A stretch of DNA of 64,000 bases, taken from contig JALGPX010000014.1 in the NCBI GenBank assembly GCA_023515795.1, positions 186,001-250,000 of the forward strand. Direction: 5' to 3'. The stretch's first letter is position 1. Every line of letters starts with the position of its first letter. The notes under the pieces were generated by a model. That model was not told where the DNA came from and searched no databases. It saw only the letters and a list, made by a program, of their open reading frames with translations. Below are positions 34,905 to 50,368 of the stretch, one piece after another. The stretch is from Amoeboaphelidium occidentale (taxonomy: Eukaryota). A program made the position numbers and the translations under genes.

Positions 34905-36227
34905 TTATTGCTCTCTTCGATGAACGAATACTTCAGCCAAAGCTTGTAAGTCTTTTGTTTCATTTGATAGTTCATCACAAACACGTATGCCCTCAATTTT
35001 ATGACATCCTGGAGCAGATGGAAAGAATTTCAATTGAACCCGCCGGGACTCCTCTGGTCTAAGTTCTCCCAAAGGCGTATTTGCTTCATCCAAGAACCAT
35101 ATAGTTCCCATTTTCTCCTTCTGTGATATGAGTTTTAAGTTTGCATTCTGCCTGCTCAGATTTTTTACGTCAAAAGTCAGAACGAATGGAACTTCAACCA
35201 CAATGTTTTTAGGACAATCGATGATTTTGATGTCAACTAGTTCAGAAGGAGCTGCTTTCCTTACCAGCTGGTTTGTCTGTAGCCTTCCGATTTCACCCAA
35301 GTTTGATCGCCAAAGTATGTCCAAACGACCTAGATTTGTCGAAGCGATTGCATTAATGGTTGACTGGTCACTTCTCGGTCGTAGTCTAAATAGATACTGT
35401 CGTGTATCTTGCGGCTGCATTGAAACAAAATCCCCAAATACAGACACAGAATCTGCGCCATAATGATTCAAATCTTCGCAAGCAAAGTATTCTGACGGTT
35501 CTAACTTGAGCCTTTCGATAAACATTGGGATTGCCATTTGATTTTGTATTTGTGCCTCAAGATACAAATGACCCGTGCCAACTGAATTGACTTTCGTTCT
35601 GACCGCTAACGGATTCAAAACGTTGAACTTGTAAAATCGTCTAAAAGATCGTTTTTCTTCACCAGAAGAAACATAATTAATTGAGCACACTAATATATGA
35701 GTTCCCAGTTCCCGTATCTCGTGGTTGACCATAAATTCAGCTGTTTGGTTCGCAAGTAACCCATGATGAGATTCTTCTGTAGTGTCATGCAACAGGAATT
35801 TTTGGGTGGTAGTCTGCAGCTCCGCCCTAAAATAGAGGTTCCGCACTCCTGAAGCAGAGTCATTATTTATGCAAATGTAAGCAGAGAACGTTTCACCAAG
35901 GTAAATATTTCCAAAACTGCTCGGTAACAATAACAGATCGCTAAGCGAGAATGTAGACACTTCCAGATCTTCATGCTCTGGTCCTTTGCTTGCCGGTAAA
36001 TCTGAAATGTCCAAGAGGGCGGGTGTGTTTACAGAAGATTTCTTTGTAGACGGTGCTGCTGTAAAATTCGACAGGTTCTTGTCTCGCAGCTTTGCAAAAC
36101 CATCATCCCCTAGAGATAAAGAAGTTCCGGAAACGTCATGAAATATCGCATTTGATGATGCAAAGTTCGGTTTAGAAAGCCTCATGACTTTTAACGACAG
36201 TTGATGCTGTTGGCTATCCGACGACAT
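34905..36227 (-). CDS. TRAPPC13: TRAPP subunit TRAPPC13 (DUF974)
   Basis: LSLKVMRLSKP, LLLP.SFGNIYLGETFS.YI and LGRLDI.WR.N.GE.GRLQT. Confidence 0.92.
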   Translation of the reverse strand: MSSDSQQHQLSLKVMRLSKPNFASSNAIFHDVSGTSLSLGDDGFAKLRDKNLSNFTAAPSTKKSSVNTPALLDISDLPASKGPEHEDLEVSTFSLSDLLLLPSSFGNIYLGETFSAYICINNDSASGVRNLYFRAELQTTTQKFLLHDTTEESHHGLLANQTAEFMVNHEIRELGTHILVCSINYVSSGEEKRSFRRFYKFNVLNPLAVRTKVNSVGTGHLYLEAQIQNQMAIPMFIERLKLEPSEYFACEDLNHYGADSVSVFGDFVSMQPQDTRQYLFRLRPRSDQSTINAIASTNLGRLDILWRSNLGEIGRLQTNQLVRKAAPSELVDIKIIDCPKNIVVEVPFVLTFDVKNLSRQNANLKLISQKEKMGTIWFLDEANTPLGELRPEESRRVQLKFFPSAPGCHKIEGIRVCDELSNETKDLQALAEVFVHRREQ

Positions 36228-36252
36228 TTTTCGGTTACAAGAAAATCTATTG

Positions 36253-36304
36253 TGAATAGAAAAAGCTGCGTCTTTTTATACAGCGGTCATAGATTTTTTG
36301 ACTC
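36253..36304 (-). ncRNA. Candidate Fanzor omegaRNA 3' scaffold
   Basis: Lies between the Fanzor stop and the element end. Hairpins GTCA-loop-TGAC and GCTGY..GCAGC; stems are retained in the allele at 37011-37061 while the loop differs. Confidence 0.5.
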
Positions 36305-36545
36305 AAATTTGCCTACTGAAACTGGGGTGTCTTTCTCCTGTTAAAAAGTAATGAACTGCGATAATAGCCATGTTAATTGCTGCTGATACATCCTTGTGAA
36401 CAATCAGATCGTGTCCAATTGAAGTCTTGCAATCTTTACATTTCCACATCCTAGTTCCTTCGTAGCCGTATTTGTCAAGAGGGTTAAAGCACATTGGGCA
36501 ATTCTAAGAAGTCCAAAATCTCTGAGCAACGACGGGCTAAGTATA
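36303..36545 (-). pseudogene. Fanzor (eukaryotic TnpB) C-terminal remnant: RuvC-II tail, Zn finger, RuvC-III
   Basis: LARRC/(frameshift)FWTS*NCPMC...RMWKCKDC...HKDVSAAINMAII...G.RHPSF matches the TnpB/Fanzor pattern TS..C..C...C..C...RD.NAA.N. In-frame TAG at 36504-36506. Confidence 0.85.
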
Positions 36546-36862
36546 TATATCACTCAATGATTAAACCCTCGTAACATTAACAACTCAGTTCTATTGTCTG
36601 TGAAGTTTTAATCCATCTCTGTGTGCATGTATCACTATCTTGAAGCACCACAACTTAAACAGCAGCAACAACAATGTTCTCCATGATTGCTATGCTCCGT
36701 TCAGGGTGCTGGCTGACTTGTATGAGTTTCTTGTGATCTCTCCTATAGTTGTTCTTCGGGTTCTCATTTTTGAGTGCTGCTGATAGCTTGATTCATGTAG
36801 CAAGCGAAATTTGATTCTTCTGACAGTTATAGTTCGCATGACCAGAATTCTATTCAGTCATN

Positions 36863-37262
36863 ATCCCCTAGAGATAAAGAAGTTCCGGAAACGTCATGAA
36901 ATATCGCATTTGATGATGCAAAGTTCGGTTTAGAAAGCCTCATGACTTTTAACGAGAGTTGATGCTGTTGGCTATCCGACGACATTTTTCGGTTACAAGA
37001 AAATCTATTGTGAATAGAAAAGGCTGCGTCTTTTTATGCAGCGGTCACATTTTTTTGACTCAGACTTGCCTACTGAAACTGGGGTGTCTTTCTCCTGTTA
37101 AAAAGTAATGAACTGCGATAATAGCCATGTTAATTGCTGCTGATAGCTTGATTCATGTAGCAAGCGAAATTTGATTCTTCTGACAGTTATAGTTCGCATG
37201 ACCAGAATTCTATTCAGTCATTCAGTAATTTTATCTCTGCGGATTGGTATTTATACTGGAAA
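36863..37262 (-). mobile_element. Alternate haplotype: duplicate of 36105-36252 plus internally deleted element allele (37011-37262)
   Basis: Same flank as copy A; junction at TGCTGCTGATA removes 397 nt; bounded by Ns at 36862 and 37263. Confidence 0.85.
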
Positions 37263-37263
37263 N

Positions 37264-37660
37264 TTAAACCCTCATAACATTAACAACTCAGTGCTATTGT
37301 CTACGAGATTTTAATCCATCTCTGTGTGATTAGATCACTATCTTGAAGCACCACAACTTAAACAGCAGCAACAACAATGTTCTCAATGATTGCTATGCTC
37401 CGTTCAGAGTGCTGACTTGTGTGAGTATCCTGTGGTCTCTTCTATAGTTGTTCTCCGGGTTCTCCAATTAATCTGCTGCTGATAACTTGATTCTTGAAAC
37501 AAGCGAAATTTGACTCTTCTGACAGTTATAGTTCGCATGACCGGAATTCTATTCAACCATTCAGAAATTTATCTGTGCAAGTTGGTATTCTTACTGGAAA
37601 TAAAAATTCTGTTTTGCCTTGACCGACCGGTCCAGGTTTCGACTAAGTGTTTGGGTGACC
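37264..37660 (-). mobile_element. Diverged paralogous copy of the same element (5' part), different insertion site
   Basis: Aligns by eye with 36561-36861 and 39596-39787 with many substitutions. Ends at GGGTGACC, then has a different flank (MTMR 3' end). Confidence 0.85.
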
Positions 37661-37694
37661 AAAAATTTTCTATTGGACATCAACCAAAGCTTTG

Positions 37695-39549
37695 CTAAAC
37701 TTTCCGCAGAAGCATATTACGCTTGGCAAGAAGATCATCGCGTTCTTGTAACGCTCTGGCAATATTCTCATCCAAGTTCCCAGAAGTCTTATCATTATTT
37801 GCTCCATTATTGTTTGTTATGCATGTTCCAAATGCACTCTTATCCCATGCACAATACATGCTATCCCACAAAAGAATGTCTTTAGGGCTAACAGAGGGTC
37901 TTAAGACATGCTGCCCTGAAGGAGAATACAAACCGCTTGTATAAATAGAAATGTTGTCGTGGACATGATTCCAAACAGATAAAGTTTTCGTTTTAAGTTG
38001 AAGTTCTAGCCGTTCTCTTTCGCAATTACCAAGAAATGTTCCAAACTGGCAATTCTGAGAGTACTTGTGCAGATCCAACAGAAGCCTTTCATTATACTCA
38101 AACTCACCAGGAAACTGCAACATTAAATTCCGAGTAGACTCTAAAAATTGAAGGAATACTGGAGAAGTTTCTTTTTCTTCCTTAGATCCCGATTTATGTG
38201 AGTGTTGCGCAGCTGAAGAAGAAGTCTTTGGCTTCATTGTCCGAACGTGTCCGCATCTTTCAGAGAATTTGTGGCCAAACGAAAGCCATTCTTTTTCTAT
38301 AAGAATCTGAAACCCCTTGAGAGTTCTGTAAAATGGATCCAAACATATAGATGCTAAACCACTTAATTGAGCTGTTCTATCCCAACCATCGGAACAGTGA
38401 ATCAAAACATTCTGTCCATTCTCAATTGCTTTCACTATAAGCAATGCAGACTCCATAATATTCCGTATATGTTTAAGCCATCCAGATGAATCTATTCCAG
38501 AGTATAAACGATCCACGCCAGTATCTGGCTGAGAACACACTAAAAGTTAACGTAAACGAAGTTTTGAAATAACCTTCAACCAACTTGTTCAAAGAGTCTC
38601 TCATAACATGAATATTATCTATACCCATAAATAATCTGTCGCAATTTCTATAGTTTTCCAAACTCTCTGTCCCAGCACCCATCGCCCTGTTGGCCATGGC
38701 GTTAGAAACTGGGCGAGCGTCGATAATAAAATTGTGATGATTATCTGAGGAATCATGGTTAGACTCAAATATAGATTCAATAAGTTTCTCATCCTGAATA
38801 CTTCGCTTTGATTTGATACCGACGAGAGGCTGACTAGACCTTGTTATTGATGCACCTGTTTGCCTGTGTAAATATGAAAGTGCCGGCAGACGACCTCTAG
38901 ACCGGAACTTTGCAGCATGATAAAGCACAGCATCACTGATTTTTGTAGGAACAACCAGAATACGAGGATACGTAGGACATAAATTATAGCCAGCATTAAC
39001 ATCAGAGATTCTCCACGCAGATCCATTATCTGAACCAACACCCATCCTTTCGAACTCTGCAAAAGGATCATACAACTCCCAACCGTTAAACTCTGCCGTA
39101 GAATTCGTCTTGGATACATGTCGAAATGAAAATGCATAAGAATTTGTAAGACTGGCGCCCTGATGGTCCAAAGCACGGCTGATCGTCTCGTAAACGGCTT
39201 GAGCATCGGCAGCAGAGGATACCAATAATCGGAAGAACGTAAAATCTCTGCAATTAAGAACAATAGAATAATACGATAAGGAATTGGAGTTGTCTGTAAT
39301 AACATTCGCAGCAACAGAATTTCTTTTGAGACTTGCCACATTCGAGTAAGGAACCCAAATTTCGTAAGGCAATCCTTCCGCATTAGCCACATACCGAATT
39401 ATAAGATCGTTAACAGTCAAGTGTAAAGAAGCTTTGTGATCGTTGGCGGCATTGATCACAGTCTTGCCATTAGACGCTGCCCCATTCGAAGGCGCCTGAA
39501 TATTCCACGTATTCGGTCGCCAGTTGAGCAAGACATCCTCCACCTTCAA
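37695..39549 (-). CDS. YMR1: Myotubularin PI3P phosphatase (Ymr1/MTMR); first exon lost at the gap
   Basis: HCSDGWDRT catalytic motif, FRSRGRLPALSY, IDARP..NA.AN and NIHVMR.SL; intron 38540-38573. Confidence 0.93.
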
Positions 39550-39595
39550 AAGTTAGGCCGATACTTTCGTGAATGAAGTCGAACTTTTGAAATTN

Positions 39596-39787
39596 GCTGA
39601 TAGCTTGATTCATGTAGCAAGCGAAATTTGATTCTTCTGACAGTTATAGTTCGCATGACCAGAATTCTATTCAGTCATTCAGTAATTTTATCTCTGCGGA
39701 TTGGTATTTATACTGGAAATAAAAATTGATTTTAGCCCTTACCAACCGGTGACCGGTCCAGGTTTCGACTAAGCGTTTAGGGTGACC
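39596..39787 (-). mobile_element. 5' end of element copy A/B, with ACCGGTGACCGGT palindrome and terminal GGTGACC
   Basis: Identical overlap with 36779-36861 and 37139-37262; followed by the repeat of the left flank. Confidence 0.85.
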
Positions 39788-39817
39788 AAGAAAATCTATT
39801 GCGGTTTGAAAGAAACA

Positions 39818-49674: not shown

Positions 49675-50368
49675 GCCCGATGGACTCTTTTAAGAGGACA
49701 GAGGGTGCGTGGAACTCTGTTCACATTTTTCAGGGGTACGAATGGCGTGATTCTATTGGCTGATTTTGTGATTGGCGTTCAACTTATAGGTTTCGAATAG
49801 ATATCACCTTTCTCATATGAAAAGTATATCTGTTACATCCTTAGATAGATCAATAAGTGACTTCTGCTCTTCATATTAAACAATTATCTTTCGTCTTAGC
49901 GTTTCAAGTAGCGCGGCGTGAAGGACGCAGAAAAAACTGAGCAAAATTTGACGGAGTTTGAGATTATTTACATTTTTAAGTTACTGCTGATATCAAATCG
50001 TCCGTGTTCTCTTCAAGGTATTCACATGCTGAAACAATTTCGTGCATAGTACACTTTTCCATCATCCAACAAAGGAACACCTGATAGAGAACCCTCTTTA
50101 TTTGCTCTCCCCAAATACTTAACTTTCTGTGCACTTTAAGTTTACACTGAATCGTCACCTGATTTTCCAGTCATGATCAGTTAACTCTGATACGCTCGAA
50201 TGGATGATGATCGCTCCGTAACAATCATTAAAAACGTGCTTTAGCAGCTACTACAGGTATGATCATAAGGAAAAATCAATAAGTAGTAGTAAAGCAGGCG
50301 TGCCTGAAGCGTTACATTGAAATCCTTTCAAAGGTTAATGTTGACAGNNNNNNNNNNNNNNNNNNNNN

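Follow-up and report, generated by a model that had tools for sequence, protein, structure and literature searches.

Among the Fanzor1 elements catalogued by Bao and Jurka (2013, PMC3627910), MCi-2 of Mucor circinelloides is reported to have duplications of 11-12 bp and no inverted repeats, with MCi-2A carrying a partial Crypton recombinase, while the Helitron2-Fanzor elements of Chlamydomonas, CRe-1 to 3, have duplications of 7-19 bp. In the Spu-1 elements of Spizellomyces punctatus, bounded by terminal inverted repeats of 30-33 bp and a TA duplication, the RNA is encoded in the interval from stop codon to element end and reads 14-15 nt into the flank, and the RNAs of protein-less ghost loci work with SpuFz1 (Saito et al. 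2023, PMC10432273). With that report, loci that supply only a guide and act in trans are already on record and not new. Small scaffolds also exist: in PpFz1 of Parasitella parasitica (PDB 9cf0; Xu et al. 2024, PMC11423790) the RNA is only 75 nt long and its second stem has 4 bp. Our literature searches found no paper joining Amoeboaphelidium and Fanzor and, among the matches listed for Fanzor self-targeting transposons, none on long duplications, judged by title and the start of the abstract.

We analyzed a 64,000-nt stretch of contig JALGPX010000014.1 of Amoeboaphelidium occidentale (the window), for which a candidate omegaRNA had been predicted at the right end of a Fanzor element, with a guide derived from the flank and pointing into the start of TRAPPC13 (the original prediction). 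The locus forms the right end of a multi-copy transposon that has internal deletions and a dead Fanzor1 tail. We consider it likely that this transposon inserted into the HGH1-TRAPPC13 gap of ~41 bp, duplicated 12-15 bp of target, and carries a decaying omegaRNA scaffold before the duplication. What remains at the site is probably the scar of an ordinary insertion rather than a device for targeting TRAPPC13. On this reading the locus adds a family of Fanzor1 ghosts from an unsampled fungus-like host, in which an empty site fixes the element ends.

Insertion site and ends of the element

Single Ns at 36862, 37263, and 39595 divide the region into segment A (36861 downwards) and segments B, C, and D. 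The first 15 nt of the proposed 20-nt guide recurred exactly at 39801-39787, at the left end of the element (p ~3e-9 per given place), and with 15 of its 20 nt duplicated there the 20-mer is not the plain unique flank guide for which it had been taken. Features of the region are collected in Table 1.

Table 1. Positions, within the window, of the element segments and the neighboring genes.
Feature	Position	Strand	Description
TRAPPC13 gene, single ORF of 440 aa	34905..36227	(-)	Three Pfam TRAPPC13 domains; homologues
Unique host flank past the duplication	36223..36237	(-)	Would serve as a 15-nt guide were the whole duplication part of the scaffold (register of PMC10711439); TRAPPC13 ATG lies within it
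Right copy of the 15-nt duplication	36238..36252	(-)	Exact match to 39801-39787; occurs once in the X3 contig that has the empty site
Predicted omegaRNA scaffold remnant, copy A	36253..36338	(-)	Folds and pair counts; position by analogy with published systems (PMC10432273)
Fanzor1 C-terminal remnant	36303..36557	(-)	Degraded DE..TS region, in-frame stops, C4 zinc finger, KD (RuvC-III), RHP..F tail
Interior of the longer deleted copy A	36558..36861	(-)	No protein family recognised
Repeat of the duplication with the TRAPPC13 5' flank	36863..37010	(-)	Second occurrence; assembly repeat beside the N at 36862
Segment B, short ghost form	37011..37262	(-)	Left-end part and the final 135 nt, with an 11-nt microhomology at their junction
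Segment C, left end of another family copy	37264..37675	(-)	83-88% identical; downstream of the myotubularin gene
Myotubularin gene block	37676..39594	(-)	Between two element ends; single N at 39595
Segment D, left end of the TRAPPC13 insertion	39596..39786	(-)	Interrupted by the N at 39595; in the empty site 39817 is joined to 36252
Left copy of the 15-nt duplication	39787..39801	(-)	16 nt past the HGH1 (DUF383/384) stop

The empty site was seen in one 336-nt metagenome contig of run X3, from a related strain, whose gapless alignments covered 133 nt towards HGH1 and 189 nt towards TRAPPC13. The 14 letters between its two joined positions resembled 39816-39802, the 15-nt stretch occurred once, continuing in gapless alignment to 36252, and six other letters over 36190-36252 were present, the position being known for one. 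This contig could be the product of an excision rather than the pre-insertion state. On the HGH1 side, a contig of run X2 departed from the window exactly at 39787. Summed depth in run X1, which is not a true copy number, stood at 104.9 up to 36255 and then at 249-1434 over 36256-36291, a sharp step within the interval (~36250-36256) where the element end had been predicted. The step, several flanks, and the empty-site contig together indicate a multi-copy mobile element with defined ends.

AATAG stood just outside the conserved left end in both left ends of the window and in three X4 contigs, with 7-8 variable bases between. Right ends in runs X1, X4, and X9 read CAC followed by AAAATA, one copy in run X3 having diverged. 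Segment C carried the same AATAG head, three X4 contigs departing from the window at 37674, and the 7-8 nt that follow AATAG differed between segments C and D. Segment D itself matched B over 124 nt and A over 83 nt, in both cases at 100% identity. From these sequences, the 15-nt repeat is likely a target-site duplication of 12-15 bp, a range that allows for chance matches among the edge bases, with a fixed AATAG-like head. Paired flanks are known at one insertion only, and the duplication is thus not established as a family rule.

Both left ends (39801 and 37675) lay 16-19 nt past the stop codon of a same-strand gene (HGH1 and myotubularin, respectively), at AATAG, which may be due either to a preference for such targets or to the survival of insertions where the genome is very compact. 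Near the left end, at 39744-39757 and 37624-37631, a 7-nt unit was found beside the palindrome GACCGGTC, its number varying between copies; this is a possible binding site of the mobilising enzyme.

In layout, the element is by analogy best matched by MCi-2, with which it shares the absence of terminal inverted repeats, a long duplication whose A/T head is fixed and whose tail varies (ATAATTNNNN(N) in MCi-2), and the lack of an assigned superfamily (PMC3627910). The likeness holds for the one insertion with paired flanks, and the AATAG head was also seen at other element ends, where the flanks are unpaired. The two differ in the head, here AATA(G), and in the length of the duplication (12-15 vs 11-12 bp); moreover, the copies here are remnants of 0.3-0.7 kb with no recombinase gene, and compared by eye, unaligned, their ends bore no resemblance to the MCi-2 ends in the available part of the PMC3627910 supplement. 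With CRe-1, CRe-2, and CRe-3 the element has in common a Fanzor1 cargo, a 3' end that is intact and bears a subterminal hairpin, internal deletions, and long duplications (PMC3627910), but it has no TTTT before the duplication, an inverted pair of only 6 bp, no 5' hairpin, and a left end that is conserved between copies rather than truncated. Like the Spu-1 ghosts, it is a Fanzor1 element of an early-diverging fungus-like lineage whose protein-dead copies retain the right end (PMC10432273), and a counterpart of the Spu-1 RNA layout is predicted here; however, neither the ~30-bp terminal inverted repeats nor the TA duplication of these Mariner-type ends occurred at its junctions. The longest inverted match between the ends was 6-9 bp and lay within the target head. 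A 9-bp terminal inverted repeat was rejected as a candidate, being perfect only with segment C and inside the target head.

The Fanzor1 remnant and its copies

The protein remnant upstream of the right end is, on its sequence, a dead Fanzor1 tail. The motif by which Bao and Jurka characterize Fanzor1 (TS-x-x, a C4 zinc finger, then R/K-D; PMC3627910) was present in the alignment, and the remnant matched PF07282 at E 3.3e-5 and 24.4 bits, under the cut-off of 26.3. A query with the 66-aa frame returned 12 representatives at E <= 0.001, and the longer relatives carried DPG/DLG/DFG, E-x-x-T/S-S, a C4 finger, [NH]KD, and a tail reading RP..F. Searched against the PDB, a profile of the 12 representatives matched PpFz1 best (E 7.5e-9), and GtFz1 and SpuFz1 more weakly, making PpFz1 the closest solved relative of the family (PMC11423790), although the window holds only ~84 tail codons with the catalytic Glu region degraded. 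Motif, domain match, and profile agree in placing the right end of a Fanzor1 element here, as originally predicted. Searched by itself, the 66-aa tail had no Fanzor match in the PDB and, in NCBIfam, TnpB models only, all sub-threshold.

The absence of a working protein was likewise borne out. Everything upstream of ~36557 is lost, the first two catalytic motifs are missing (the first RuvC motif is gone and the DE position is degraded), and in-frame stops are present; the window copy has no intact RuvC triad (DPG, the Glu before TS, and the final Asp in one open frame). In other copies, from runs X3 and X4, V-V-D-E-Y-N-T-S was still readable where the window copy is degraded (loose contig ends at 36532 and 36505). 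The nearest named relative was P0133 (KAI3655706.1, MP638_003429, Amoeboaphelidium occidentale), 79% identical in the tail over 83-84 aa, where it retains the DEYNTS motif. The rest of that gene model had no match to the element, and its sequence suggests that KAI3655706.1 is likely a mis-joined annotation in which unrelated sequence is fused to a Fanzor tail. An identity of 79% may point to a related host or to the element having been transferred.

Translated in three frames with stops read through as X, the interior of copy A matched no family, recombinases and transposases included, and none of the full-length relatives (P0141-P0143, 759-1164 aa), in which only the TNB family and no transposase domain was recognised. 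Two of these relatives, P0141 and P0142 (832 and 1164 aa), had all three RuvC motifs and are candidates for activity in the same Fanzor1 branch. A protein-pattern search for other loci in metagenome and viral contigs gave 144, 6, and 16 pattern matches, with 0 confirmed, and the hairpin DNA pattern was found in 0 metagenome contigs.

Segment B was joined at 37145-37135, the matching copies of this microhomology in A being at 36785-36775 and 36388-36378, and the deleted form keeps the 3' 135 nt downstream of this junction, as had been claimed. The loop difference and the change from G-U (A) to G-C (B, 37011-37067) were also observed, but that A and B are alleles was not confirmed. The two differed by seven events in the last 56 nt and by one in 315 nt elsewhere (Fisher p 9e-6). 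In run X1, a 34,211-nt contig at single-copy depth had an A-type end beside TRAPPC13 with one difference, and a separate 62-nt contig at ~4x that depth had the B-type loop (rows 36292 and 36293). By their sequences A and B look like two subfamilies, and the occurrence of B beside TRAPPC13 would be due either to haplotype conversion or to a chimeric assembly.

The G-C pair was the family norm, found in 1266/1371 in run X1 and in all cases in runs X3, X4, and X9. Copy A differed from the X1 majority at 36280 (1266/1371), 36306 and 36308 (3275/3379 each), and 36290 (789/1434), and all four deviations were C>T or G>A. The swap that had been noted in the stem is a one-sided C-to-T change private to copy A, and not covariation. 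Copy A is likely drifting or decaying.

The predicted omegaRNA scaffold and its guide

The Fanzor stop codon occupies 36305-36303 (-), with 50 nt from there to the repeat end at ~36253, placing the right end of the element where omegaRNAs overlap or follow the stop. The two hairpins predicted within this span were found as a GTCA/TGAC stem (36302-36299 paired with 36289-36286) and a GCTGY/GCAGC stem (36284-36280 paired with 36269-36265), both on the (-) strand; in copy A, a possible third stem and a closing helix extend into the coding tail. With a distance from stop to end this short, compared with Spu-1, a scaffold would extend over part of the coding tail, as it does in GtFz1. Whereas RNA expression is established for Spu-1, the RNA here is a prediction from sequence.

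The folds did not exceed chance. The hairpin region of 57-58 nt folded at z -0.57 (55/200 shuffles as good) and -1.07 (31/200), and 30 choices of start and end ranged from z -1.65 to +1.23. With G-U allowed, the pattern of a 4-bp and a 5-bp hairpin arose in 629/2000 and 306/2000 shuffles, and with Watson-Crick pairs only in 110/2000 and 40/2000, segment A itself failing the strict pattern. The B-type end formed three stems, which a helix involving the coding tail closes off (helices of 4-6 bp, z -0.5 to -0.6), and A folded more weakly; the three-stem outline of Fanzor1 RNAs reported in PMC10711439 is similar. Solved Fz1 RNAs have a first stem of 7 bp (PMC11423790), which appeared in folds of neither A nor B, and Rfam returned no match at the hairpins, its one match over the window being a chance snoRNA elsewhere (E 3.1). 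Between A and B, a comparison of two sequences only, 0/19 helix pairs had changed on both sides, two on one side, and one was broken. Among other copies in runs X1, X3, and X4, both hairpins had pair-breaking variants, and two fragments from different runs, unphased, hint at a GGCC/GGCC version of hairpin 1. A minimum free energy fold that paired the coding tail with the flank was rejected, its partner being site-specific sequence. The candidate omegaRNA draws its support from its place at the Fanzor1 right end and, in outline, from the B-type fold, although the folds are within chance; by position and analogy it is likely a scaffold remnant, and the 50-90 nt before the duplication likely a decaying scaffold.

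As predicted, the proposed 20-mer (36252-36233) ends a few nucleotides before TRAPPC13, 5 nt short of the ATG at 36227-36225 (-), a start supported by a 440-aa protein of 99% identity; beyond that match, the best homologues were 43-44% identical, in Mucoromycota, which makes the host an early-diverging fungus or one of its relatives. Since the gap between HGH1 and TRAPPC13 is that small, the closeness of the flank to the ATG needs no explanation, and any flank there would point into the TRAPPC13 start. The findings give no support to guide regulation of TRAPPC13. Antisense control was rejected because the RNA would be of the same sense as the mRNA, and a bacterial promoter scan was set aside as irrelevant to the host. 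The element, HGH1, and TRAPPC13 have the same orientation, and the TRAPPC13 mRNA likely starts inside or upstream of the element on the same strand, so that it may itself cross 36253; a transcript across that position, suggested as a check on the omegaRNA, would be an unspecific sign of it.

Yoon et al. report that Fanzor RNAs end ~15 nt beyond the duplication and place the duplication in the scaffold (PMC10711439), an assignment also made in a 2026 review (PMC13565253), and SpuFz1 is reported to plateau at 13-nt guides (PMC10432273). The proposed 20-mer is not a guide of 14-15 nt beyond the target-site duplication. A register from 36252 would match the filled left junction at 15/15 positions with native upstream bases, and therefore the element would cut itself; this register is the least consistent with published cases. 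A register after AATAG leaves a match of 9/15 at the filled left junction, and one after the whole duplication gives a guide that covers the ATG and has its full site at the right junction. Given a duplication that exceeds a TAM in length, every register tried leaves a match of 9-15 nt at one filled junction, such that a duplication of 12-15 bp confronts duplication-in-scaffold models with a near-complete target at the element's own junction.

By comparison with published systems, we suggest that the right end of the intact ancestor gave rise to an omegaRNA extending into the flank, and that the intact Fanzor would cut the emptied site, with repair restoring the element and so helping copy-back. 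The constant target head AATA(G) would then sit in the scaffold, moving the guide start from 36252 to between ~36246 and 36237, and the target of such a guide would be the insertion site of the element, not TRAPPC13 as a gene. The window copy would need a Fanzor protein in trans. In an intact copy, the guide start would reveal how self-cutting is avoided, or whether Fanzor cutting makes long duplications.

The ends and the long duplication could have arisen in other ways. Were they Crypton-like recombinase ends, the repeats would be recombination sites, AATAG would be part element end and part target, and the hairpins would be DNA signals with no RNA role left. Such ends would accord with the lack of any terminal inverted repeat beyond the short match in the target head, with the continuation of both the left end and the target by TTG, and with the recombinase fragment of MCi-2A (PMC3627910), as well as with a 6-bp inverted pair inside the left end and before the 3' hairpin, in the positions of Helitron2 repeats (172/5000 shuffles). 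Yet Crypton terminal direct repeats are reported as 4-6 bp (PMC3212892), with no longer duplication, against 15 nt here; C and D disagree in the bases that follow AATAG, as would be expected of a target duplication; and Helitron2/Helentron elements need asymmetric inverted repeats of 8-15 bp and a 5' terminal hairpin, of which neither was found at either end (left ends folded at z -0.11 and -0.16). We regard this origin as very improbable. A scar of Fanzor cutting, in which the right end is joined immediately ahead of AATAG by the mobilising enzyme and the position of the left junction is fixed ~15 nt downstream by a guide-directed cut, seems to us quite unlikely; if true, the register from 36252 would be right and guides would influence where copies land. 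The length suits the cuts of SpuFz1 (after base 16-17) and GtFz1 (14-17, non-target strand) (PMC10432273), and Craig has proposed a Fanzor role in the odd duplications of Chlamydomonas Helitrons (PMC10288648). Furthermore, an X4 right-end flank from a different locus shares AATAGAT and then TTGTAAC with the flank at TRAPPC13 (chance ~0.002 after 5 offsets x 5 flanks, a rough, post hoc figure). However, this second block occurred in only 1/5 other flanks, the middle 5-6 nt, the would-be seed, differ entirely between the two flanks, and no common TAM was visible upstream of three left flanks; a two-part target specified by a protein, or a parent flank carried along as in Replitrons (PMC10288648), explains the likeness equally. 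Highly doubtful, too, is the bolder version in which the guide RNA helps to choose as well as cut insertion sites, the 15-bp duplication being a guide-length scar, each flank the next guide, and sites alike beyond AATAG in the manner of the X4 flank, which would amount to RNA-assisted transposition in a eukaryote.

The preferred reading of a decaying insertion scar must also be weighed against a ghost that is still alive. The copy at TRAPPC13, or the short B form, might still be transcribed and load an intact Fanzor in trans, either guarding the filled site from excision or converting empty alleles. Ghost RNAs do so work with SpuFz1 (PMC10432273), the closed three-stem fold of the B-type end has the shape given for Fanzor1 RNAs (PMC10711439) and its pairs are preserved by the family-majority bases, the deletion in B spares the last 135 nt, and filled and empty sites coexist among related strains. 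We nevertheless judge this unlikely: among proteins of 117-2000 aa the search for an intact close relative of this tail gave three candidates and 0 passing, weak evidence in itself, copy A has private transitions in its stems, and non-autonomous elements retain their ends for transposition anyway, so that a spared end is no sign of RNA function.

Assembly order in the window

The gene order across 36862-39595 is not to be trusted, because the myotubularin contigs of runs X1 (17,364 nt) and X2 (14,385 nt) continue past 39594 into sequence that differs from the window. The myotubularin block is likely another locus scaffolded between element ends in error, and the repeated TRAPPC13 flank at 36863..37010 had one difference in 148 nt from its other copy. 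The true order is likely HGH1, the element, and TRAPPC13, the stretch enclosed by the repeats measuring ~717 nt with A and ~319 nt with B. Elsewhere in the window, Ns occurred at 1001 and 1456 and an N run at 50348-50368, and sequence was duplicated on both sides of single Ns, as at 36862. Positions 1-2300 consisted of simple repeats of 26% G+C, compared with ~40% elsewhere, and could be a low-complexity gene end or foreign DNA. Within the myotubularin gene, an X4 contig skipped the 34 nt at 38540-38573, which have CT..AC ends (GT..AG on the gene strand); this is likely a 34-nt intron, and run X4 may hold spliced sequence.
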